Assembly (NCBI GenBank): GCA_023205875.1
Contig: CP060757.1
Coordinates: 1,240,001-1,304,000, forward strand
Direction: 5' to 3'
Origin: Chloropicon primus
Taxonomy: Eukaryota
Length of the DNA: 64,000 nt
This document shows positions 3,241 through 16,441 of this stretch, in pieces (within the stretch, counting starts at the first letter, position 1; the number at the start of each line of letters is the position of its first letter). Under the pieces are notes generated by a model. The model saw nothing but the letters and a program-made list of their open reading frames with translations. It was not told where the DNA came from and searched no databases. Both the position numbers and the translations under genes were made by a program.

Positions 3241-4077
3241 TCAGACGTTCGCCCACGTCCGAACGATCCTGTCGTAGACGGAGACCGGGTACATCCTCGC
3301 GAGGTACGTGGTCCGGATGGTCCCCGGAAGGATGACGAGGGCCTGCCTCCTCGCGACGGCCCCCATGATCCTGCGCACGACGTACTCCTCGTCCATCAGG
3401 GGGAAGAGGGCCGAGCACTTGACCTCGGCCTCCTTGCCCATGCCGTTGTCGACGTACGAGGGGCACACTATCGTGGTGCCCACGGCCGAGTTGATCTTGC
3501 TGAGCTCGAACCTCAGGGACTCGGTCAGGCCAAAGGCCCCGAACTTGCTCGCGCAGTAGTCCGAGAGCCCGGCCACCCCCATGATCCCCGCCACCGAAGA
3601 CACCGTCACGACGTGGCCCGAGTCGCGCTTGATCATCGAGGGAAGGAAGGCTCTGACCGTCCAGAAGTGGGCGAGGAGGTTCACGTCCACGCAGCGGTTG
3701 ATCTCCTCGTCCGAGAGGTCCGTGATCCACTTGCCTCCCGAGGTGACGCCCGCGTTATTCACCAGAATGTCCACCGCGCCCTCGAAGGCCGCCAGCACCT
3801 CGGCGGCGCGCTCCTGGATCTCCTCCCGGCTGCTCACGTCGCACCTCATCATCCGGAGGCTCCAGCCCTTCTCGGAAGCCTCCCTATGGACGTCCTCCAT
3901 CGCGTCCTCGTTCCTCCCCCACCCCACGACCTCCGCCCCGCTCGCCGCGAGCCTCTTCGCCAGACGGAGCCCGATCCCCGAGGTCGCCCCCGTGATGACC
4001 ACGCGCTTCCCCGAGAACCGCTCGTCCAGCGCCGGGCCGATGGCGTTCGACTGGCAGCAGCTGTACCCGACCCCCAT
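3241..4077 (-). CDS. Short-chain dehydrogenase/reductase (retinol dehydrogenase-like)
   Basis: TGATSGIG cofactor motif, NNAG, catalytic YCASK. Confidence 0.9.
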   Translation of the reverse strand: MGVGYSCCQSNAIGPALDERFSGKRVVITGATSGIGLRLAKRLAASGAEVVGWGRNEDAMEDVHREASEKGWSLRMMRCDVSSREEIQERAAEVLAAFEGAVDILVNNAGVTSGGKWITDLSDEEINRCVDVNLLAHFWTVRAFLPSMIKRDSGHVVTVSSVAGIMGVAGLSDYCASKFGAFGLTESLRFELSKINSAVGTTIVCPSYVDNGMGKEAEVKCSALFPLMDEEYVVRRIMGAVARRQALVILPGTIRTTYLARMYPVSVYDRIVRTWANV

Positions 4078-4676
4078 GGCGACGACGGTGGATGTCCTCG
4101 AAAGGCGAAGCCGATGGCGCGTTCTCTTTGCCTCTCTCTCTCTTCTCTTTGCCTCTCTCTGGTCCACGACCGTTATCTTCGTCGACAAAATCTAAGCAGA
4201 TCTTGATGAAAGGGCGGGCGGGAGGAGAGGGGGGAGTGCTTTTGTTTTTTGACAGAGTGATGCACATGCATTGTTTTACATATCGATAGGATGGTACACA
4301 TTTTTACATATACACGCAAGAGAGAAAGAGAGACACTTGTGCGTTCTTGCTCCTCTCTTCGTTTGGTTGTGCGCCCGAGCCCAGAGCAACCCGCGACGAC
4401 ACCGGGAGGGCCCGCGAAGAGGAAAAGAACTAAGAAAGAACCAAGCAAGCAAGAACATCAGAGATCGCCCTCCCAAGAACAAAAAAGAGAGGGGACGGGG
4501 CAGTGTAGATCCCCCCCCTTCACTTTGGGGTGGGTGGGTTGTTCTCAGACTCGAAAGATGGTGTTTTGGAAGAAAATTTTCATGGAAGAATTCTCAAAAC
4601 CTTTTGTCATCACCGAACACCGCGCGTTTCTTCTTCTTTCCATTCCCACCACTACTCACCTCGCATTCCCTCCGTT

Positions 4677-6101
4677 TCACTCGCAAGCGCCTTCGGCCTT
4701 CCCTCGCACCTTCTCCCAGCACGCTTCGAGCTTGCCAAGAAAATGGTCGACGTCCCTCTCCGTCATCCCGATGGCGGCGGCCGCGTTCAGGTAGCTGTGC
4801 GGGTAGGCCGAAGAGTGCGCGCCGTAGTTTACAAATTCGTGCCCGCAGACGGCCTGGCTCTTCCCCGGGGAGTAGACCCTCGCGCCCGAGATGCATCTCT
4901 GGAACAGCATGGAACCCAAGAACCTCGTCCTCTCGTCGGAGCCCCCGCAAGCGCTCTCGCGGAACCCGTCGAGGGTCATTGCGAAAGAGATGGGGTTCCC
5001 TGGGGTCTCCAAGACGCGCTCCCCCTTCGCTGACGCGAAGCTCCTGAGCCTCTGCCCGAGGTAAAGGTACAAGCTTTCCCTCTCCTTCAGGAGATCGGCC
5101 CAGCCCTTGGCCCCGAGGGAGAGCAGGGTGATGGTGACGTCCAGGAGGGGGGACATGGAGGCCCTGCCCGGGTAGGACTTGTCCACCATCTGGGGCACGT
5201 CCGAGAACCCCTTCTTCCCCACTATCACGGCCCCGCCCACGGGCACCATGAAGTTCTTGTCCGTGGACTGCACCACCGCGTCGACCCTTCCCTTCCTCCA
5301 GGAGGACGTGATCTCCTTGCATATCTCCGAGGACTGCACGCCGTAGGCGTTGTTGATGATGTGGGCCACGCCCTGGCGCTTGCACAGCTTCGCGACGTCC
5401 ACGATCTTGTCCGAGGCGCGGGGAGCGAAGCAGCTCGTGGTGGTGAGCACGCACAAGATCTCTCCCCCCTTGGACTCCACCTCGGCCTCCAGCTTGCCCA
5501 CGTCCGTGACCAGCTGGTCGCCCTCGAGCACGTTCTCCACCACCAGCGCTTGCAAATTGGCTGCGTAGATGCACTTGAGGCACGTCTTCTGATCGATCCG
5601 GGGCCACAGCACGTACTTTCCGCTTGGGTTGTGCCGCTTCAGGGCCTGGAGCACCAACGAGAGCGCCATCCCGGTCGCCACCGGCACGGTCGTCACGTAG
5701 CCCACCTCCCCCAACCCCGCGACCTCAAAGGCGTCCTTGACGAGAAAGTTGCAGACCTTGCACAGGAGGGAAGACCCCGCCGCCTTGGGCTGCACGGCGG
5801 ATATGTCCCCCGACCGACCAATGCCGTGGGCGAGGCCGTAGTGCCTGTCGTACACGAGGCGACTGTGGATCCTCCCCTCTCTCTCCCCCACGCCAGCGTT
5901 CTGCAGAAAGTTGTTGCTGTCCATGAGCGCCAGCTCTTTCAAGAAAAGGCGCACCGAGTCCTCGTCCCAGGCCTCGTCCGGCAGCCTCCTATTCGAAAGG
6001 AGCTTCTTGAAAAGCTTCCGCCTCGACGCCAACGCTTGCGCCCCCTGGTTCAGGTACGTCCCGGGCACCATCCCCTCGCAAGGAGACAACCAATCCTCCA
6101 T
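4677..6101 (-). CDS. SEPSECS: O-phosphoseryl-tRNA(Sec) selenium transferase
   Basis: MDSNNF, GEREGR, HGIGRSGDI..QPKAAGSS, WPRIDQKTC, NNAYGVQ, QSTDKNFMVPVGG, YPGRAS. Confidence 0.95.
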   Translation of the reverse strand: MEDWLSPCEGMVPGTYLNQGAQALASRRKLFKKLLSNRRLPDEAWDEDSVRLFLKELALMDSNNFLQNAGVGEREGRIHSRLVYDRHYGLAHGIGRSGDISAVQPKAAGSSLLCKVCNFLVKDAFEVAGLGEVGYVTTVPVATGMALSLVLQALKRHNPSGKYVLWPRIDQKTCLKCIYAANLQALVVENVLEGDQLVTDVGKLEAEVESKGGEILCVLTTTSCFAPRASDKIVDVAKLCKRQGVAHIINNAYGVQSSEICKEITSSWRKGRVDAVVQSTDKNFMVPVGGAVIVGKKGFSDVPQMVDKSYPGRASMSPLLDVTITLLSLGAKGWADLLKERESLYLYLGQRLRSFASAKGERVLETPGNPISFAMTLDGFRESACGGSDERTRFLGSMLFQRCISGARVYSPGKSQAVCGHEFVNYGAHSSAYPHSYLNAAAAIGMTERDVDHFLGKLEACWEKVRGKAEGACE

Positions 6102-6367
6102 CCCTCCCTCCCCCCTCTCGTCCTACGCCATCCTCCCTCCAACTCAACAACAACAACAACAACGTCCTCGCCCTCGGCCGACGACGACGACGGCGCTCGC
6201 GGCGGCCTCTCTGTTGGAGGTTTTCCCCTGTTGGTGGGATTCCAGTGTATACCAGTTTGGTCACACCCAAAGGACAACCCACAAAACGTTTTCTCGTTCT
6301 CACTTGCTGGACAAGGCACTGGTAAAAAATCTAGCCTCGCGAGAGGAAGGGAGGAGGACGCCGGGTG

Positions 6368-6376
6368 AAACCCTAA
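6368..6376 (+). promoter_or_regulatory. Telo-box-like motif AAACCCTAA just upstream of the Fanzor ATG
   Basis: Exact AAACCCTAA ending 5 nt before ATG 6382. Confidence 0.35.
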
Positions 6377-6381
6377 CAGTC

Positions 6382-8553
6382 ATGGCGCGATCAGGGAAGC
6401 GCCGTAAGAAAAAGGAGAAGCAGGGGAGTGGCTCGACGAGTTCCACAAGGAGGTCGCACTCTGGCGAGAGTCATGCTCAGGGCGCTTCGAAGTCGGGGCA
6501 GGAGTCTCCGACGACGGAGCGGCCGTTACTTCGGTTCTGGAATCAGGGTTTAGCCTGGCTCTACGCGTTGTGCCTGCTTCCTATTGCGGACGACCCCGCC
6601 TCTGCGGGTGAGGGTTCGAGCACGCCTCGCAAGAAGCGGGGGGGGAAGCGGAAGGAGACGCCGCTGGACGACCCCGCCTCTGCTTTCGAGGAGGGTTCGA
6701 GCACGCCTCGCAAGAAGCGGGGGGGGAAGCGGAAGGGGCGTCCGCCGGAGGCGGACGCCTCTGCGGGTGAGAGTTCGAGCTCGTCAGGCAAGCCTCGCAA
6801 GAAGCCTCGCAAGAAGGGCAAGAAGAAGAACAAGAAGAAGGGTAAGAAGAAGAAGAACAAGAGGGGGAAGAAAGCAGGGAAGCAGCCGGGTGGCTTGGCG
6901 GACGACAGCGTGAAGAAGACCTGGTTCTCATCGATCAAGAGAGAACTTGAAGAGGTAAAGTGTCCGAAGACGGGATGGAGGTCGTGCTTGAACCTTCCAG
7001 AAGATTCTGTGGTATCCGTCGAGACATTGCAGTCGCCCGCCAAAAGGAAGAGGGGGCAGAAACTGAAGACCTCCAAGCTATTGTCGGAGCGAACGGTGAT
7101 ACGGACGAGGAAGCTGAGGATGCGCTTGAACCCTGAGCAGGCGAAGTGCCTTTGCAACTGGATGGGAGCTGCGCGTTTCACATACAACAAGTGTTTGGAG
7201 GCGGTCAAGAAGGAGGGTTTTCCGCTGGTTTGGACCGTCCTGCTGGACAGATTTGTGACGGCCAAACCGCGACGCCCTGAGGTCTTTGAGGGCCTGGAGA
7301 AAGAGCTGAAAGAAATCCAATGCTCTCCACGGCCATGGACAAAACAGGAGGCAGAGCTTTTCGCGGCCAGAGAGAAGAGACTCGAGAGCCAAATTGGAGG
7401 CAGAGCTTTTCGCATCCAAGTCGCCAAGGACCGGGACTACGTTAGCGGGGCCTTTGTAAATCAGGAGCATCCTTGGCTGAAGGATACCCCCTGTGCCATC
7501 AGACAAGCTGCCGTGCGAAGTCTCATCAAGGCATGGGATTCGAACACCGCGAAGCAGGAAGCGATGAAGGAGCGCGGCGAGGAGAAGGGGCACCGCTTCG
7601 TTCTCAAGTATCGTCAACGTCAGCAACCGAGCTCTTGGACCATTGAAATTGATGCAAGAGAGTTAAAGAACGTGGAGACGATCGAAAGGCCAAACACGAG
7701 GCACAAGGATGACACCAAGCACAACAAACGACGCAAGTGGACCAAGCTGGAGGTGTTCAAGAAGAAGATGGCCGGCGGGCCCCTGTACTTGACGGAGGAG
7801 ATCCCCGGGGGCAAGATCGAGGGTGCCGTGAAGATCACAAGAAATCGCCTTGGGCAGTTCCACATGCACATTCCCATCGCGACGCCATGGGATCGCCTGC
7901 CACCCCTGAAGCCTGAGAACAAGCGGAAGGTTGTCGCCCTGGATCCGGGAGTCAGGACCTTTCAGACGTCGTACTCGCCGCAAGAAGGCGTCGGGGAGTA
8001 TGCCAAGGGCGAGCGAGGCTTCGCGAGGCTGTTCAACCTCTGCTGGAGGATTGATGAGATCATTTCCGAGCGCAAAGACCCAAAGGTGAAGCTCCCTTAC
8101 CTCGACCGCCGCGACTTGAAGAGACAGCAATACGCCTGCATGGAGAAACTTCGAGGTCTGACGAACGAGCTTCACAAAAAGGTAGCCAACGATCTATGCA
8201 GGAGGTTCGACACAATCCTCCTCCCGGAGTTCAAGTCCCAAGACATGGTGAAGAAGAACAACAACGGGAGACGCCGAGTGATCAGGAAGAAGACGGCTCG
8301 CACGCTCTTGACGTTGAGGCACTATGCGTTCAGAACGTTCTTGGCTTCCAAGGTGCTCTTGCACGGCAGTGAGCTGGCGATCGTGACGGAGGAGTACACC
8401 TCCAAGACCTGTGGCAGGTGCGGACACATCAAGAAGAACCTGGGTGGAGCAGAGGTGTACAAGTGCCAGAAGTGTGGCTTCAAGTGCGGTCGGGATGTGA
8501 ACGGGGCACGCAACGTCCTCCTGAAGCACTTGCGTCAACCAAAAAGTGTGTAA
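6382..8553 (+). CDS. Fanzor2-type (TnpB/IS607-related) RNA-guided endonuclease, ~723 aa from ATG 6382
   Basis: OrfB-type N-terminal helix (RKLRMRLNPEQ..WMGAARFTYN), RuvC-I ALDPG (D codon 7942), ILLPEF, EEYTSKTC (E codon 8389), Zn ribbon CGRC/CQKC, RuvC-III RDVNGARN (D codon 8494); Lys/Arg-rich N-terminus. Confidence 0.92.
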   Translation: MARSGKRRKKKEKQGSGSTSSTRRSHSGESHAQGASKSGQESPTTERPLLRFWNQGLAWLYALCLLPIADDPASAGEGSSTPRKKRGGKRKETPLDDPASAFEEGSSTPRKKRGGKRKGRPPEADASAGESSSSSGKPRKKPRKKGKKKNKKKGKKKKNKRGKKAGKQPGGLADDSVKKTWFSSIKRELEEVKCPKTGWRSCLNLPEDSVVSVETLQSPAKRKRGQKLKTSKLLSERTVIRTRKLRMRLNPEQAKCLCNWMGAARFTYNKCLEAVKKEGFPLVWTVLLDRFVTAKPRRPEVFEGLEKELKEIQCSPRPWTKQEAELFAAREKRLESQIGGRAFRIQVAKDRDYVSGAFVNQEHPWLKDTPCAIRQAAVRSLIKAWDSNTAKQEAMKERGEEKGHRFVLKYRQRQQPSSWTIEIDARELKNVETIERPNTRHKDDTKHNKRRKWTKLEVFKKKMAGGPLYLTEEIPGGKIEGAVKITRNRLGQFHMHIPIATPWDRLPPLKPENKRKVVALDPGVRTFQTSYSPQEGVGEYAKGERGFARLFNLCWRIDEIISERKDPKVKLPYLDRRDLKRQQYACMEKLRGLTNELHKKVANDLCRRFDTILLPEFKSQDMVKKNNNGRRRVIRKKTARTLLTLRHYAFRTFLASKVLLHGSELAIVTEEYTSKTCGRCGHIKKNLGGAEVYKCQKCGFKCGRDVNGARNVLLKHLRQPKSV
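6588..6810 (+). repeat. In-frame tandem duplication (period 78 bp; two copies plus a partial third) encoding NLS-like repeats
   Basis: GGACGACCCCGCCTCTGC...GAGGGTTCGAGCACGCCTCGCAAGAAGCGGGGGGGGAAGCGGAAGG at 6588-6655 and 6666-6736; partial copy from 6751. Confidence 0.9.
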
Positions 8554-8735
8554 CTCCTCAGGGTTGCACATACGTTTGTTAGTACGGGCTGCCGTGCGTG
8601 GGCGGAAGTATTCGTTCATGTACGGTGGAATGGTCGTGGTAGGGCCGAATTACCCTGCCGAGAAACTTACAAACTCGGTGAAACGACCTTTGCAGAAAAC
8701 TAACAGGTAAGTAGTGGCCGGCCTTCCTCCGTGTT
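8546..8735 (+). ncRNA. Candidate Fanzor omegaRNA (scaffold ~8546-8712, guide from ~8713)
   Basis: Hairpins 8546-8571 and 8591-8626; stem 8632-8637/8683-8688 enclosing two hairpins; closing stem 8577-8583/8699-8705; pseudoknot 8665-8670/8707-8712; many G-U pairs, which favour the + strand. Confidence 0.75.
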
Positions 8736-9155
8736 TCTCTCTTTCAGTGGAAAGGAGAACTTGCCTTTGTGCTTCCAGTATTGACTGTGATTTCCCTACC
8801 GTCCTTTCGTGACTTTTCTGTGTGCTGTTTTTGATCTGATGTCTGAACACCATAACACTCTCCCTCCCTCTCAGTTTTCCTGAAAACTCACGGTCAGGGA
8901 ACTCCAGGCCCTCCCAGAAGGCAGGGAGAACTCCAAGGCAGTGACCTTGGCGTCGAGGAAGGGAGGGGAAGGACAGGTTTGCAGAGGAGGCAGGAGGCAG
9001 GGAGGCGGGGCGATGGGTGCTTGGTAGCCCTGGCCGCGGTTGGCGATTCGTGAGACCAAGCGTCCGAGAAATTTCGAGGGAGGGGGCGGGACGTCTTCCA
9101 CATGGTCTCGCGGGAGGGGAAATAGACCACTACTTGGCACACGAGAGTCCTTGGG

Positions 9156-12100
9156 ATGGGAAAGTGGATAGAAGCGCTCGTCGTTCTGGGGAGGGCGGAC
9201 GCGTCCCCGGAGGCCAGCGCGCGGACTTCGAGAGCGGCGAGCTCTGAGTTCGACAACCGGGCGTCCATATTGAGGTGCATTCCCGGGGAGGCGAGGGAGC
9301 ACCTCCCACCGCAGCTCAGTGTCTGCTGCCTTCCCACGGGAATCCAGAGAAAGCCTTTCCACCACAGGTCGCTGAGCAAGTACTACGACAAGTACAATGT
9401 CGTCCTCACGGACTCAACGGGCAACAAGACCTACGGCTACTGCTGCACCTTCTTCGACGTTTGCTCCGACAGGGTTCCGCGGGAGGGGGAGAGCCAGGAA
9501 GACGAGTTTGCTTACACAAAGTGTCTCTGCCTGATATCCAAAGACCCTCTCTACTCGACCTTCGAGACCTTGGTGCAGACGATGTACTCCACTTGCTTCT
9601 ACCAGCGGTCGGTGCTGAGCTACAACTACGACCTCCTCGCCGAAATTGTGACGAGAGTGAACCTCTTGCCAAGAGAGCTGGGCAGTCCCATGCACCTCAT
9701 TCTTCCGATCGACAGCAGGACCATTCACCTGGAGTTCGAGTGCCTCCCGGAGGGTTCGCCCTCCGAGATTCAGATCGACGACGTGGTCGGGATCAAGCCA
9801 AAGGCCTTGCTGTGCCTCTTCGAGGCGGTGCTGCTGGAGAGGAAGGTGATTCTGAGGTCAGAGAGCAAAGCCAAATTGAGCGGCGTGGCAGAGGCTCTGT
9901 GCGAGCTCTTGTACCCCATGACCTGGCAGCACATCTACATCCCGATCGTTCCCCAGGGGCTGACAGAGTATTTGGAGGCGCCCACGCCATACTTGATGGG
10001 CGTTCTCTCCAGCATCTCGACTCACAGCTTGAACTACGATCAGTCGATCGAGATCAACATCGACGACTCCACCTGCCACTTTGGGGAAGACTTCTCCCTG
10101 CCCTTCTGTGACGACTTCGTGCTGCTCAGGAAGCGGCTGGAGCAGCTGCCACGGGAGGGCGGCCACTTGGATCGCAACAGGTACTTGAAGCACAGGGAGA
10201 GGGATATCAGGTCCTTGTTCTTGGAGTTCGTGACCAACTTGTTGGCAGAGGCCCGCAAGCACTTTCAGCAAAACAAAAGAGACTTCGGGGAGGTCAGCGG
10301 CCAGGACCCTGACTTTCTGCAATCGTTCATGGAGACGCAGATGTTCCAGAATTTCTTTCACAATTCTCCGGGAATGCTCGACGCCCAAGAATTCGATGCG
10401 ATGAGGTCCCGCTTGACGGAGAGGTTTTCCCTCGTGTCCGAGGCGCAGGCAGTCGGCAAGCAAGTCGAGATCGTGAGCTTCCAATCCATGCTGCCGTCGG
10501 CTGATATAGCCAGCGACCTGGAAGGAGCAAAGAAAAACTCCCTGGCCAATCTGAGCGGTGCGGAGGGGTGGAGGAGCAAGGCGGAGGACAAAATGTACTC
10601 GAAGCTTCAAATGGAGGCAATAAAGAGCGAGAGGATTGTAGACTTGCACGAGTCTGGCCTGCAAGTCACTCCTGATGGTGGTGGAAACAGCAGCGATTTC
10701 TCGTACAACGAGAAGATCGAGGAGCTCTTCGATTGCGTGTACTTATATTTTCAGACGAAATACGGGAACCTTCTGTTCGACACGAGTTCCTCGATTGTCA
10801 GGCAGTGCATCGATAGCGTGGGCAGCATGGAGCATCTGACGGCAATGGTGGACGTCTTCAAGTACACTATTATGGAATCAAAGAGCAAAACGATAGAGTT
10901 CCACAGCCTGGACACCATGCAGAAGTTGATTCCCGTGTTCGAGGACATTGTCATGAAAGCAATCCACTCGGGCGACCACATCTTGGCGTTTGGGGTGCTG
11001 GCCATGAGCCTGTTCATCGAGTACAAGCCCGTGCCTGATGGGGGCGAGGGCATCACGGCTTTTGCGCACGTCGTAAACGATTTCCCGAAGAACAAATCCT
11101 TCTGGGTGGAGTTGGTGTCTTCGATCGTCGGGGGCGCTCAAAATTTGGAAGCAGAGGAGTCGGCGGCCGGCTACGAGTTTGTCGCAGATCTCCTGCTCCT
11201 CTGCTCGGTGATATTTGGTGATGACACCTGGTATGAAGCTTCAGTTCACGATCTCGCCGAGAAGATCACGATGAGCGAGCTCGAAGCAAAGGACATCAAA
11301 GTCATGTGCCTCCTGAGCAAGTCCAAATTTAGTCCAAGGGCAGTCTCCATGTGCCCAGATTCTAACTGGAACTTGCTAGGGAAGTTCCAAGCCGCGGAGT
11401 TGAGAGAAATGGAGGTGCGCCTACCTTCAGGAGAGTTGAAGGCAGCCCCGAATTCTCCCGTGAAGTCTATGGACTCGTTTTCGAACGTGATCATCGCTGC
11501 CACGTGCGATGCCCAGGTCCGCTTGTATAGTAAACCTTCAGGGGGGTCCAAGATACTGAGGGCTCCCGCATCGGTGCTGAGGCAGAGATCACGCCTCAAT
11601 CTCGTGAAGTTTAGTCGGGAAGGGTCCAACTTCTTCATTGTATCAAACAGAATCGGAGTCTGGGACACGAGATCCTTGAAAAGCATTCGTCACATGGAGG
11701 TGGAAGACACTCACTCGTGTTTTCGCGTCAGAAAGAACAATTCGGGGAAGGACTCCATTCTGGCTGGGACTGCAAAGGGAAGTTGCAAGCTGTGGGACCA
11801 CCTGTCCTCGGCCTCAGCTGCCTGCCTATCCTTTGAAGGCCATTCCAAGCAGGTGACAAAGATAACGTGCCTGGAGGGAGACAATAATCTGTTTGTATCC
11901 TCTTCCCGGGACGGTAGAGCTCTGCTGTGGGACGTGAGAAAGAACGGGGAGCCGGTGCACACGATGGTTGGGCACGAGTCTTGGATCACGGACCACCGAA
12001 TTTTCTACTGTGGCGACGACCCCTATCTCGTGTGCGGCAGCGACGATTGGACGAGCACGGTTTGGAACCTCAGCAACGGAAGCCTCTGCTGCACCTACTA

Positions 12101-12521
12101 TGGCCATACCAGTCCCGTTTGTTCGCTTGCGGTGTGCTCCAGCGATCCCGAAGAAGGTCCTGTGATTGCTTCTGGCGATTGCACAGGGTCGATCCAGCTC
12201 TGGAGAGCTACTCTGGGCGATGTGTACACTTCTGGCGCTACCCTCGAGTCTCTGTCTCTGAGAACGAGAGGCGATCCGGTACTCAAAGTGGAGTGCCAGG
12301 GGTCGAAGCCCTTGATCGCCTGCCACTCAAGCAACACTGTGGCATCGTGGGAGCTCTGCGGCAGCGAGGGTGACCTTAGCGCAAACTGCAAGGCTTACCT
12401 CGACCTGAGTCTGCACTTCACCGCATGCAAAGTGGACTACGCCACGAATTTCGTATACAGTGGTTGCGCAAACGGCAACGTTGTGGCGTGGAGCCTCGCC
12501 GAGGGGATGTGCTCCTTGTGA
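9156..12521 (+). CDS. DENN-domain plus C-terminal WD40 protein (SCD1-like Rab GEF)
   Basis: uDENN/DENN motifs (VLTDSTGNKTYG, LLERKVIL, LLYPMTWQHIYIPI, EAPTPYLMG) and C-terminal WD40 repeats. Confidence 0.85.
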   Translation: MGKWIEALVVLGRADASPEASARTSRAASSEFDNRASILRCIPGEAREHLPPQLSVCCLPTGIQRKPFHHRSLSKYYDKYNVVLTDSTGNKTYGYCCTFFDVCSDRVPREGESQEDEFAYTKCLCLISKDPLYSTFETLVQTMYSTCFYQRSVLSYNYDLLAEIVTRVNLLPRELGSPMHLILPIDSRTIHLEFECLPEGSPSEIQIDDVVGIKPKALLCLFEAVLLERKVILRSESKAKLSGVAEALCELLYPMTWQHIYIPIVPQGLTEYLEAPTPYLMGVLSSISTHSLNYDQSIEINIDDSTCHFGEDFSLPFCDDFVLLRKRLEQLPREGGHLDRNRYLKHRERDIRSLFLEFVTNLLAEARKHFQQNKRDFGEVSGQDPDFLQSFMETQMFQNFFHNSPGMLDAQEFDAMRSRLTERFSLVSEAQAVGKQVEIVSFQSMLPSADIASDLEGAKKNSLANLSGAEGWRSKAEDKMYSKLQMEAIKSERIVDLHESGLQVTPDGGGNSSDFSYNEKIEELFDCVYLYFQTKYGNLLFDTSSSIVRQCIDSVGSMEHLTAMVDVFKYTIMESKSKTIEFHSLDTMQKLIPVFEDIVMKAIHSGDHILAFGVLAMSLFIEYKPVPDGGEGITAFAHVVNDFPKNKSFWVELVSSIVGGAQNLEAEESAAGYEFVADLLLLCSVIFGDDTWYEASVHDLAEKITMSELEAKDIKVMCLLSKSKFSPRAVSMCPDSNWNLLGKFQAAELREMEVRLPSGELKAAPNSPVKSMDSFSNVIIAATCDAQVRLYSKPSGGSKILRAPASVLRQRSRLNLVKFSREGSNFFIVSNRIGVWDTRSLKSIRHMEVEDTHSCFRVRKNNSGKDSILAGTAKGSCKLWDHLSSASAACLSFEGHSKQVTKITCLEGDNNLFVSSSRDGRALLWDVRKNGEPVHTMVGHESWITDHRIFYCGDDPYLVCGSDDWTSTVWNLSNGSLCCTYYGHTSPVCSLAVCSSDPEEGPVIASGDCTGSIQLWRATLGDVYTSGATLESLSLRTRGDPVLKVECQGSKPLIACHSSNTVASWELCGSEGDLSANCKAYLDLSLHFTACKVDYATNFVYSGCANGNVVAWSLAEGMCSL

Positions 12522-12624
12522 CGTTTTGTGAATTGTGTGTTATATAATTGCTGACACTTTACAACTTTTCATTTTTGTGACGAAGAAAACGTCATATTAA
12601 GTTTACGGGCCCTCCTCACTCGCT

Positions 12625-13689
12625 TTAGAGAGGAGCAAAATCCTTGAACAGCTCCTTCGCCTTCTCTGGGTCGACCTTCGCAGAGTTTGGATCATCGATC
12701 GAATCTGGATACTTGTCGAAGTTCTGCGTGTCACCCTCACCCTTCACACTTGGAACAATTGGCGGTTGCTGCTCTTCCGAATTGAGAGCCGCCCAGTTGT
12801 ATCCCTTGAACCACTTGTGCTTCTTGATGTCCTCAGCCCCATTCTTGAGACAGCCAAGTCTCTTTGTCCTATCCGACTGAAGAAGCTTCTTGACCAGGTC
12901 CTTTGCGTGAACATCGAAGTGTCGAGGGAACTCTAATTTGTTTGCAAGAATCTTCTGGTAGATTCCAAAAGGGTTCTCGTCGTAGAATGGTGGATACCCC
13001 GCTAGCATCTCGTAGATCAGGATTCCCAGGGCCCACCAGTCGGCGCTCTTTCCATGGCCCTTGCTCTGAATGATTTCTGGTGCCAGGTACTCGGGCGTGC
13101 CACACAATGTCCACGTTCTATCCGTGACCACCTTGGCAAAACCGAAGTCAGTGACTTTCAAGAACCCTCTATAATCCAACAAAAGGTTCTCTGGCTTCAA
13201 ATCTCTATAAATAATGTCCTTGGTGTGAAGGTACTGAATGGCAGATATAATCGATGCGGCATAAAACCTGCTTGTGTCGGTGCTGAATCTACCCCTTTCA
13301 CGCAAGTGAGAAAAGATCTCACCTCCTGCAACGTACTCCATGAGCATGTACAAGCTTGTTTCGTCCACAAAGGTGGCAAAAAGGTGGACAATGAAGGAAT
13401 GGTCGATTCTCGACAGAATATCCTTCTCACTCCTTATGTGCTCGACCTGCTTGAGTCTAATCACCTCGCTCTTCTTCAGAGCCTTCAAAGCATAATATTT
13501 TCCTGTCGCCTTGTGCTTTACTAGCCTAACTCGACCAAAAGTTCCCGTTCCTAACGTTTCGAGGATATCGAACTCGTCTAAGCTTTTGAATTCCTGACCC
13601 CTTCTTGGCTCCAAGCTCGAGCTCACCTGAGGAGCCGGCTCCTTGTCCTTTTTCTTGCTCTTGGAACCGAGCCCAAGCGCCTTCTTCAT
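12625..13689 (-). CDS. cAMP-dependent protein kinase catalytic subunit (PKA-C/PRKX-like)
   Basis: GTGTFGRV, LKQVEH, YRDLKPEN, DFGFAK, RTWTLCGTPEYLAPE, C-terminal FKDF motif. Confidence 0.92.
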   Translation of the reverse strand: MKKALGLGSKSKKKDKEPAPQVSSSLEPRRGQEFKSLDEFDILETLGTGTFGRVRLVKHKATGKYYALKALKKSEVIRLKQVEHIRSEKDILSRIDHSFIVHLFATFVDETSLYMLMEYVAGGEIFSHLRERGRFSTDTSRFYAASIISAIQYLHTKDIIYRDLKPENLLLDYRGFLKVTDFGFAKVVTDRTWTLCGTPEYLAPEIIQSKGHGKSADWWALGILIYEMLAGYPPFYDENPFGIYQKILANKLEFPRHFDVHAKDLVKKLLQSDRTKRLGCLKNGAEDIKKHKWFKGYNWAALNSEEQQPPIVPSVKGEGDTQNFDKYPDSIDDPNSAKVDPEKAKELFKDFAPL

Positions 13690-14205
13690 TGTGTCTCTCC
13701 TTTGTCCTGAACCGTCCTTCCTCTACAATCAATGTCGAGTCTCCTCTGCTCGCCGAAATGCACGTCTCCACCACCGCTCAGCGACTTGCTTTCAGCCCCA
13801 AAGTTCAGGAAACAAAGGAAGACGAGAAAAGGACACAATCCTTCCAAGTCTCTCTCTAAGGTTACGCCTTCCCTCCGACCGAGGGCAGCCCACTGACGCG
13901 GTTCCCAAATCCCCCTCCCTGGGTCTGCTCAGTCCTTTTCTTAGGGTAGAGTTCCTTACGTCTCCTCCTTTCCTCTTCGGTCCCGTCAGTCCGGTTCCTC
14001 GTCCCCGTGGCCAGTGCCGTCTCAAGCCAAGGTAAGGTAGTCCTCCCTTCCCTTGAGTCTTGTCCTCTACGCCGCAAACCACCTACGAAACCACCTCTTT
14101 TGCCAAGCCCAAGGTCCTCGAGGAAAAATGAAGAGTTCGTATTGTGCTAAATGCAACTTACTGGACAAGGGAGCGAGAACAACGGGGAGGGAAACACTCC
14201 CACAA

Positions 14206-14298
14206 AACAGAACAGAACAGAACAGAACAGAACAGAACAGAACAGAACAGAAGAACAAAGAGGAAGAGGAAGAGGACGAGGAAGAGGAAGAGGAAGAG
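14206..14298. repeat. (AACAG)n microsatellite followed by a GAAGAG-rich tract
   Basis: About nine AACAG units at 14206-14250. Confidence 0.9.
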
Positions 14299-14824
14299 CC
14301 AGCTTTGCTTAAGAAGGGGAATGGAAGGAGCGAAAGAGAAACAGGGTTGTCTTTGTGTAGAATTGTCATACTGTACCTCGCAGCGATTGGGGAAACGCAT
14401 ACATGTTTGGGATGAGGACGGAGGGGAAACTCAGACTCAAGAGGAAAAGTTTCAGTTTTAGAGTAGTATTCACGAGGTAGGACAAGAAGAGGAGGACGAG
14501 AGGGCAGCACGGGATTATAACTATGAGGGAAGACCCTCTTCTTGTACACGAGGACAAGCGAAGTCAATCCCCGGGACCCCGGGCCGCCTTTCCTTTCAAT
14601 GAAAGAAAAGTTCAAATATGAATTTGTCAGACAGCAGAAGACTTCTTTCTTTCTTTGTTTGCTTGGGACGTTCGTACGTTCGCGTGGTGGATCATCATCA
14701 TCATAGTATCCATTTCTTTTTTCTGTTTCTGTTTCCGTTCTACTTTACATTAGATTGCTTACTCGATGGGCAGACAGAGCCCAGCGGTGATCCCTGAGGT
14801 GCGACGACCTCCCCGACCTCTCAG

Positions 14825-16441
14825 CTACTTCTTCGGCTTCTTCTTCTTCGGCTTCTCGTTGCTGTCACTGTCGTCGTCGTCATCCGAATCCTCGTCGTCG
14901 TCAGAGTCATCGTCGTCGTCTTCACTGGCACTGCTGTCGTCGTCCTCGCTCTCGTCCTCGCTCTCCTTGAAGTCCTCGTCCTCCTCGCTGTCCTCGTCTT
15001 CGCCGCTCTCGCCCAAGTCATCGAGCCCGGCAACGGGGGCGCTCGCCGACCTCCCGCCGGCGTTCATGGACTGCTGCACTTGCTTCAGGTTCTCTATCCT
15101 CAAGTTCCTCTCCTGGATGAAAGAGAAGAGGTTCTGCCACTCCTGCTTCTGGATGCTCCTGAACAAGAACTCGGTGTCCGACTTTGTCTTCACGAGCAAG
15201 TCAAAAGTCTTGGCAGCCGCAGAGTACTGGGACATGGACTGCCTCTGGAACTCCACAGACTCTATGTCGTCGAAAAGGATGAGGATCGGCGGCTTCTGCA
15301 CGTAGAAGAAGGCCTTCTCGAGCGGGAACAGGTACCCGTCGTCGCTCTTGTAGCTGCACCTCACGCAGTGGCCGTCGCCGGAGGAGTTCTTGAACTTCAC
15401 CGGCCGGCTGATCTTCGCGCCCGCCAGACCCCTCACGACCTTGGCAAACACGTCGCTCGAGGGCCCGTTGAAGTTCCTGTCTGGAATTCCGTTCCCGTTC
15501 ACCTCGTTCTTCTTCTGCAGCTGCTCGTCCGACAGGTTCAAGTGGACCTCCTCCATGTCGTCGTTATGGAACTGAAACAGGACGTGCGGGTAGAAGGTCT
15601 GGCCCTTCCTGATGGGAGGATCCAGGGAGAGCACGACGAGGGTCTGGGGCTGGTGGACCTTCGGCAGAACGAAGACCCTCATGATGCTCGTGTACCTGAT
15701 CTTGAAGTCCTGGCTCTGGCCCACGAGCTTCAAGAAGTTCATGTGGAGCTGCACCTCGTACCTGCCCCTCGGCACCACCACGGCGACCTCAGGCATGGAC
15801 AGAATGATGTCGTCGCTGCTGGTGACCAGGTCGGCCTTGGTCAGAACCTGGTCCAGGAACACCTTGGCCGAGGTCTTGTCCTCCTCGGCGAAGTAGGTCG
15901 ACGAGTCGGGGGGAACGTAGAACGACATCTCGACCAGGGCGTCCTCCTTGGTCGCCGTCCCCGTGTCGTCGGTCTGGAACTCTATGGCGACCTCGTTCTT
16001 CCCCTGGAGGGACGCCTGCGAGATGTCCTTCATCGTCACCTCGAAGGCCTTCTTCCCGTCCACGTCGAAGCTCAGCTGCGAGTCCACGATGTTCAGTTCC
16101 CCCCAGTTCCTGCCGTTGGAGCTCAACTCGCGATCTTGGACCACGCCCTGCTCGAACCTCGCCCTGAGCTCCTCGATGTCCCTCTCCCGGAAGCCAACGA
16201 AAGCGAGCTGGCTCCCATCCCTCTTCTTCACCGTCAGCACGAACTCCCTCCCGCTCCTCGCCCAGTACGCCTCCTTGACCTCCTCCGAGCTCACCGTGAT
16301 CGTCTTCCCACCGCCCTGCTTGCGCCACGTAAAGCCTTTGCCTTCCAGCTTGAACGTCCCTTGAGGCGCCGCACCCGTCGACGCGAGGTAGATGCTCCCG
16401 AACTGGTGCACCCCCCCTCCGCTCGCCACCTCCGCTGCCAT
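14825..16441 (-). CDS. SSRP1: FACT complex subunit SSRP1/Pob3 (no HMG box visible)
   Basis: GRNWG, GKNEV..EF, PRGRY, LDPPIRKGQTFY, GYLFPLEKAFF..KPP; acidic tail. Confidence 0.93.
   Translation of the reverse strand: MAAEVASGGGVHQFGSIYLASTGAAPQGTFKLEGKGFTWRKQGGGKTITVSSEEVKEAYWARSGREFVLTVKKRDGSQLAFVGFRERDIEELRARFEQGVVQDRELSSNGRNWGELNIVDSQLSFDVDGKKAFEVTMKDISQASLQGKNEVAIEFQTDDTGTATKEDALVEMSFYVPPDSSTYFAEEDKTSAKVFLDQVLTKADLVTSSDDIILSMPEVAVVVPRGRYEVQLHMNFLKLVGQSQDFKIRYTSIMRVFVLPKVHQPQTLVVLSLDPPIRKGQTFYPHVLFQFHNDDMEEVHLNLSDEQLQKKNEVNGNGIPDRNFNGPSSDVFAKVVRGLAGAKISRPVKFKNSSGDGHCVRCSYKSDDGYLFPLEKAFFYVQKPPILILFDDIESVEFQRQSMSQYSAAAKTFDLLVKTKSDTEFLFRSIQKQEWQNLFSFIQERNLRIENLKQVQQSMNAGGRSASAPVAGLDDLGESGEDEDSEEDEDFKESEDESEDDDSSASEDDDDDSDDDEDSDDDDDSDSNEKPKKKKPKK

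Follow-up and report, generated by a model that had tools for sequence, protein, structure and literature searches.

Fanzor2* of Chloropicon primus has been described as a non-autonomous TIR element with a variable 5-nt TSD that carries Fanzor2 only (PMC10711439; preprint 10.1101/2023.08.09.552727), and the accessible part of these sources proposes that TIR and TSD join the omegaRNA scaffold. In the locus described here, by contrast, the predicted scaffold stops 151 nt short of the element end, and the flank is reached by way of an intron. IStrons, composed of a group I intron and an IS605/IS607 TnpB, likewise have a splice site at the omegaRNA scaffold/guide boundary; as presented in the available portion of the report (10.1101/2023.11.20.567912), their scaffold is part of an intron that splices itself out, which separates scaffold and guide, whereas here the scaffold is an exon, the donor is spliceosomal, and splicing would join the two. 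Introners, in the part of the account at hand (10.1101/2022.06.06.494994), are TIR/TSD DNA transposons with a 5' splice site of their own and a 3' splice site co-opted from the insertion site, as at our locus, but they remove the whole element from the host mRNA, while at our locus the element RNA is kept, except for its tail. IS607 Fanzor2 systems (ApmFz2, PDB 9B0L; relatives L001-L018 below) share with our locus the protein family, the rearranged RuvC domain and a pseudoknot adjoining the guide; their element ends directly at the scaffold end and their recombinase is intact, whereas our locus has a broken TnpA and an internal end. Fanzor transcripts that undergo spliceosomal processing are known, for example, from the Chlamydomonas Cre-1 gene, whose introns lie in the coding region, and the accessible text of PMC10312701 describes none at the omegaRNA.

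In a literature search confined to papers available without subscription, several of them in part, we met with no account of a Fanzor omegaRNA at which the spliceosome acts. The strings 'splic' and 'intron' do not occur in the text, as distinct from the figures, of Yoon et al. (PMC10711439, preprint 10.1101/2023.08.09.552727) or in its supplement text, and Saito 2023 contains 'splic' once, in a reference only. The Jiang preprint, in its available sections, describes coding introns only, and the 2026 OMEGA review, to the same extent, covers IStrons and not splice-assembled guides.

We analysed 64,000 nt of C. primus contig CP060757.1 (positions 1,240,001 to 1,304,000), referred to as the window, whose own numbering is used throughout. 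Contigs of four public runs (X1-X4), taken as RNA by guess, were aligned to positions 4000-15000. The features of the locus are the following:

6207-6211, plus strand: left TSD CTCTC; among the ranges scanned, no other pair of ends combines a 5-nt duplication with termini that match
6212-8857, plus strand: Fanzor2* non-autonomous TIR transposon, from TSD and TIR and from loose ends of other copies at 8857 (X1, X2); fits the description in PMC10711439
6382-8553, plus strand: Fanzor2 ORF, 723 aa, with zinc finger, intact RuvC D (ALDPG) and rearranged E (VTEEY) and D (RDVN)
6435-7352, plus strand: broken remnant of an IS607 serine recombinase (TnpA) that contains stops and lies in another frame (tblastn with the relatives' TnpA, best E 1e-15)
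8546-8706, plus strand: predicted omegaRNA scaffold, with a provisional 5' end, the upstream exon of the intron, from homology to relatives and fold
8578-8583, plus strand: predicted pseudoknot 5' strand GTTAGT within a short stem-loop (covariation)
8657-8679, plus strand: hairpin whose loop holds ACTTAC (8665-8670), complementary to the donor and not kept in relatives
8699-8706, plus strand: predicted pseudoknot 3' strand ACTAAC plus AG, the ancestral IS607 right end and scaffold end (relatives, covariation)
8707-8874, plus strand: spliceosomal-type intron, 168 nt, GT..AG; 151 nt of element tail and 17 nt of host flank (joint in X1 and X2)
8836-8840, plus strand: candidate branch-point-like CTGAT within the element (motif)
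8858-8862, plus strand: right TSD CTCTC, which opens a host pyrimidine tract
8872-8874, plus strand: acceptor CAG in host DNA, holding the first AG past the element (sequence and joint)
8875-8895, plus strand: predicted guide, the host flank that would stand behind the scaffold after splicing (joint and pseudoknot table)
9156-12521, plus strand: host DENN and WD40 gene, reached by the spliced transcript

The TIRs of the transposon are degenerate (TGTT...AACA), with the first 4 nt perfect and 7 of 15 positions matching overall. Contigs from other copies in X1 and X2 diverge at 8857, which agrees with the right end, and no intact transposase is present. IS607 elements carry an intact serine recombinase and lack a TSD, whereas this element has a TSD and a TnpA remnant with stops. 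Contrary to the TIR-plus-TSD scaffold end proposed in PMC10711439, the pseudoknot strand stops 153 nt before the element end. The empty site was reconstructed from the TSD alone, and ends of a second copy were not found within the window. The insertion split a divergent gap of ~400 bp (6102-6211 and 8863-9155) between SepSecS, which runs on the minus strand from an ATG at 6101, and DENN-WD40, whose ATG is at 9156, so that the Fanzor ORF now lies between them. Upstream ATGs precede DENN-WD40 at 8618, 8630, 9013 and 9102, and DENN contigs now begin in the scaffold exon. One X1 contig joins 6318 to 8799, a mini-element that has both ends and lacks Fanzor, scaffold and donor while retaining the branch-like CTGAT and the right end; it may be a minimal form of the TIR element.

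The ORF product is TnpB-like, with Pfam matches to Cas12f1-like TNB and HTH_OrfB_IS605. Its four best matches are 90-98% identical and named Chloropicon primus 'IS605 transposase', and its closest PDB match is 9b0l (E 2e-19). The Fanzor2 active site is recognizable as ALDPG (residue 519), VTEEYTS (668) just ahead of the CxxC (677), and RDVNG (703), an intact catalytic triad. The decayed TnpA overlaps the Fanzor N-terminus, an overlap also found in intact relatives, where TnpA is a resolvase (PF00239) in all six. The Fanzor N-terminus is enlarged at 6597-6858 by tandem repeats of 81 bp and by a lysine-rich run with NLS-like PRKKRGGKRK motifs, and the repeat number varies between element copies. 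Prokaryote genomes gave two weak matches (E ~1e-4), which were left aside, and a viral scan with a single Fanzor protein gave no relatives.

Relatives were gathered with alignment A1 and comprised 80 metagenome and 7 viral loci. Among these 87, the element tail and left end had no clear match (best E 0.11), and the search thus yielded no further lineage that has this intron. For the pseudoknot scan, 19 of the 87 loci were picked by eye; seven were tabled with the window and 12 dropped (L003, L007, L015, L017, L031, L036, L041, L042, L049, L055, L065, L081). Of the dropped loci, L036, L042 and L055 have a candidate pair in a similar position. In the resulting eight loci GTTAGT:ACTAAC is paired in 48 of 48 cells, a count inflated by selection, since the scan that chose the loci required pairing; slid controls gave 11-25 of 48, and two-sided changes occur at five of the six pairs. 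The scaffolds of the nearest relatives L001 (56%), L002 (53%) and L004 (40%) are homologous to the window by sequence alone, independently of that scan, and have GTTTGTTRGTAC-like and AAACYARC-like motifs in common with it. The pair changes of L002 (A-T to G-C) and L004 (T-A to C-G) fall in motifs that are homologous by sequence. A MAFFT alignment of the seven divergent scaffolds misaligned the motifs and was set aside. Covariation in these eight selected loci thus points to the guide-adjacent omegaRNA pseudoknot typical of Fanzor2. The fold z score of 8540-8735 was -2.94. The upstream exon alone folds 8577-8583 onto 8699-8705; in the spliced or unspliced RNA the pseudoknot pairs were not recovered (P 0.01) by the program, which cannot model pseudoknots. 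Rfam gave no matches, and a pseudoknot-motif scan of viral contigs gave 27, none near a Fanzor gene, which we took as chance. Two close Fanzor relatives, L003 (3301 onward) and L007 (806 onward), have no recognizable homologous scaffold, and L007 carries 30-nt tandem repeats in its place.

We place the predicted scaffold end at ~8706, with a margin of 1-2 nt, because of the conserved position of the pseudoknot strand, of published structures in which the pseudoknot occupies the last few scaffold bases (PMC11832414, as far as accessible), of IS607 scaffolds that end one base into the flank (PMC10711439, likewise), and of the more distant L036 family, where four different flanks (L036, L041, L042, L065) start right behind the strand plus GG. 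A GT stands two bases past the strand in all seven tabled relatives (L001:2433, L002:3085, L004:1825, L005:2321, L016:2471, L018:2116, L050:1068). Its T, three bases after the strand, is thus present in 7 of 7, and L055, which was not tabled, has C. This suggests a GT rather than a GG crossover core in this IS607 clade, and the donor GT may have been inherited from the IS607 end, which would lower the improbability of a donor at the boundary, itself uncertain by 1-2 nt. GTRAG was found at the corresponding place in none of the tabled relatives.

An earlier note on this DNA had pointed to a consensus donor CAG|GTAAGT and had predicted a junction 8706^8875. The donor is present as CAGGTAAGT at 8704-8712, the only copy on both strands of the 64 kb; of all window positions, 0.11% start a GTRAG and 0.017% a GTRAGT. 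The junction was found in contigs of X1 and X2, which come from two studies (depth 69 and 127; 168 nt skipped; 27 letters on the short side), and not in contigs of X3 or X4. X1 and X2 also skip the host intron 4430-4659, a sign in favour of both being RNA. The joined contigs continue unbroken into DENN-WD40 (X1, 8872-12600), bearing out the read-through into the downstream gene that had been suggested; since 8875 onward is unique host DNA, the spliced RNA comes from this locus. The loss of a segment with GT..AG ends in two of four runs is as in a U2 spliceosomal intron. A group I intron is not indicated: 8300-9200 matched nothing in Rfam with E values up to 1, and the ends are GT..AG. As in IStrons, a splice site lies at the scaffold/guide boundary, here a donor rather than an acceptor: the intron starts within 1-2 nt of the boundary and the scaffold is left whole. 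The donor and CTGAT belong to the element and the acceptor to the host, an introner-like pairing of one own and one co-opted site, but only 8707-8874 is skipped; splicing removes the element's own 151-nt end, with the acceptor 17 nt beyond it. The location of the element end at 8857, and hence of the acceptor in host DNA, had been missed.

The tail combines the perfect donor with a U-rich tract, CTGAT, an AG-free last 79 nt and the end ACA. The AG-free stretch before the acceptor had been noted correctly (AG at 8777 and next at 8873, within the CAG); taken alone it is not rare, with 19 gaps of at least 95 nt on the plus strand of the window and P ~0.05 in shuffles of the element tail. The remark that no CTGAC branch is present is literally true but passes over the CTGAT, and the host intron 4430-4659, the sole host intron verified here, likewise has CTGAT near its acceptor. 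The proposed nearer acceptor TTTCAG, ending at 8747, is there, while the joint 8706^8748 appeared in none of the four runs, contigs being able to show presence and not absence. The host intron, on the minus strand, starts at 4659 with GTGAGTAGTGG, which is identical to the element intron start at 12 of 15 positions; this likeness may be due to chance, shared origin or an extended host donor motif.

Long contigs of X1, X2 and X3 stop exactly at 8706. Summed contig depth, a weak measure, falls between the scaffold (8533) and 8715 from 1415 to 170 in X1, from 1888 to 0 in X2 and from 336 to 34 in X3, and in X4 a copy extends from 8707 into 46 unrelated letters. From this one contig, the contig ends and the depth drops, we tentatively conclude that other copies are spliced as well, each to the flank of its own insertion. 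The copies differ among themselves from 8715 on. An abundant internally deleted copy, in which 6985 is joined to the pseudoknot strand (depth 753, 2331 and 363 in X1, X2 and X3), is unspliced through CGG|GTAAGT. This derivative (6888-6985 joined to a copy of 8697-8718) has kept pseudoknot strand and donor and lost the scaffold; its apparent end, ~14 nt past the donor, is a run of A, possibly poly(A).

Taken together, we consider the chances about even that the intron at the scaffold 3' end, spliced to a host AG, gives the scaffold a flank-derived guide. On that same evenly divided judgement, the reading is favoured by the joint in two runs of two studies, the contig ends at 8706, the covarying pseudoknot, the donor kept in the deleted derivative and the intact triad; it is opposed by the highly expressed deleted copy that is unspliced through the donor, the lack of a G-starting flank, and the lack of allele discrimination at this locus. 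Held slightly less firmly is the full model of a spliceosome-assembled guide RNA of a eukaryotic nuclease. The transposon would supply donor and branch point and the host the acceptor, and each insertion would be spliced into scaffold plus site-specific guide; splicing would be the adaptor that keeps an IS607 Fanzor working within a TIR transposon to which it is unrelated, and one locus could obtain several guides by the use of alternative acceptors.

In this model the ancestor would be an IS607 Fanzor2 whose end, as our comparison shows, consisted of the pseudoknot strand plus 2-3 nt, followed by flank. Capture in a TIR transposon would then have buried the IS607 end 151 nt inside, as the element ends show, and the unspliced RNA would consequently have a fixed guide for which the element is the only match. 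The tail, with its perfect donor and AG-free U-rich stretch to ...ACA, would be spliced to a host AG, as the joint shows for this locus, probably by way of the CTGAT branch, and splicing would restore the ancestral IS607 layout of scaffold and then flank-derived guide. By analogy with other Fanzor2 and TnpB proteins, Fanzor would bind the spliced RNA and trim it to scaffold plus ~15 nt of flank. With a duplication starting with G, ACA+G would place an acceptor right at the element end, where the filled allele would show CAG and the empty allele host bases. Since the TAM would then differ between empty and filled alleles, restorative homing would be possible, provided that the TAM is not YAG. 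In the accessible parts of the literature, the TAMs given for Fanzor2 have 3 nt with G as the last (CCG, and TAG for MmeFz2), and 'G-rich' is also mentioned; self-cutting is possible if the TAM is YAG. A random flank gives a first-base acceptor only 29% of the time, and none of the three flanks seen starts with G (own C, X1 T, X2 mixed A), which counts against this step. At the present locus the acceptor lies 17 nt past the element, so that the spliced target and TAM position (CAG) are identical in filled and empty alleles and homing would not discriminate between them. At such sites the guide, with YAG always at the TAM position, is probably idle, and read-through into the host gene would be a by-product.

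TGTAA is the green-algal signal, and none occurs past 8549 in the element. This counts in favour of the main alternative, a real intron that serves the mRNA only, which we rate clearly below an even chance. The element would then be a splice-donor gene trap that borrows host exons and 3' ends, with an incidental effect on the guide, and transcription would reach a gene that the element has separated from its promoter. The spliced contigs run unbranched into DENN-WD40, the element sits in the ~400-bp SepSecS/DENN gap, the GT is possibly ancestral, and allele discrimination fails here; carrying a donor and co-opting an acceptor is also known from introners (10.1101/2022.06.06.494994, accessible part). 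What a purely mRNA role leaves unexplained is a donor within 1-2 nt of the scaffold end and not anywhere in 300 nt of 3' region, together with an intact nuclease and covarying scaffold kept despite a fixed unspliced guide; it is, moreover, compatible with guide assembly rather than exclusive of it. An antagonism as in IStrons, where splicing competes with the omegaRNA at the same boundary (10.1101/2023.11.20.567912, available portion), is unlikely. Here the unspliced RNA would be a working omegaRNA with a fixed guide (8707 onward) against another element, and splicing would disable or swap it; unspliced contigs do exist, and 14 nt past its donor the abundant derivative appears to stop in a run of A. 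However, the fixed guide matches only itself in the window, plus one host donor with 3 mismatches in 15, the copies diverge from 8715 on, the A-run derivative is without scaffold, and little contig depth extends into the tail.

ACUUAC is the hexamer by which U1 snRNA reads donors. The earlier note had built on this a pseudoknot ACUUAC:GUAAGU that would compete with U1 and be deleted, together with the guide, by splicing that destroys the omegaRNA. Its motif positions, including ACTTAC at 8665, its junction and its reading as an intron that can change the guide and allow read-through all stand; the pseudoknot does not. The complementarity is perfect over 6 bp and ACTTAC lies in a hairpin loop, but ACTTAC arises in 5.7% of scaffold shuffles and neither hexamer follows the Fanzor gene in any of the six relatives checked. 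It is the pair GTTAGT:ACTAAC that covaries, and its strand ACTAAC lies in the upstream exon and is kept on splicing. We regard this competition as even less probable than IStron-like antagonism, and the loop at 8657-8679, as a U1 mimic, as at most a secondary, lineage-specific donor mask. It is very improbable that an assembly artefact, or a deletion of the DNA between the two CAG triplets in the strain that was sequenced, gave rise to the joined form. The 3-nt identity flanking the joint, the guessed RNA nature of the runs and the short side of 27 letters would allow it, but the canonical GT..AG, the consensus donor, the two studies, the host intron spliced in the same runs and the contigs of three runs breaking at 8706 speak against it.

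The locus bears on the question of how a TnpB or Fanzor, once captured by a transposon whose ends are of another kind, can go on taking its guide from the flank. The published answer is that TIR and TSD are recoded into the scaffold; splicing, to which this locus points, would be a second one. For none of the RNA-guided nucleases of this kind did we find splicing described as a route of guide-RNA assembly. It would be the inverse of the IStron logic, in that splicing makes the guide RNA instead of breaking it. Even if the intron serves the mRNA only, the scaffold boundary of this Fanzor family is corrected and the element rewires the 5' end of a host gene. If guide assembly by splicing is true, the element would be a model from nature for guide RNAs that are transcribed by Pol II and controlled by splicing.
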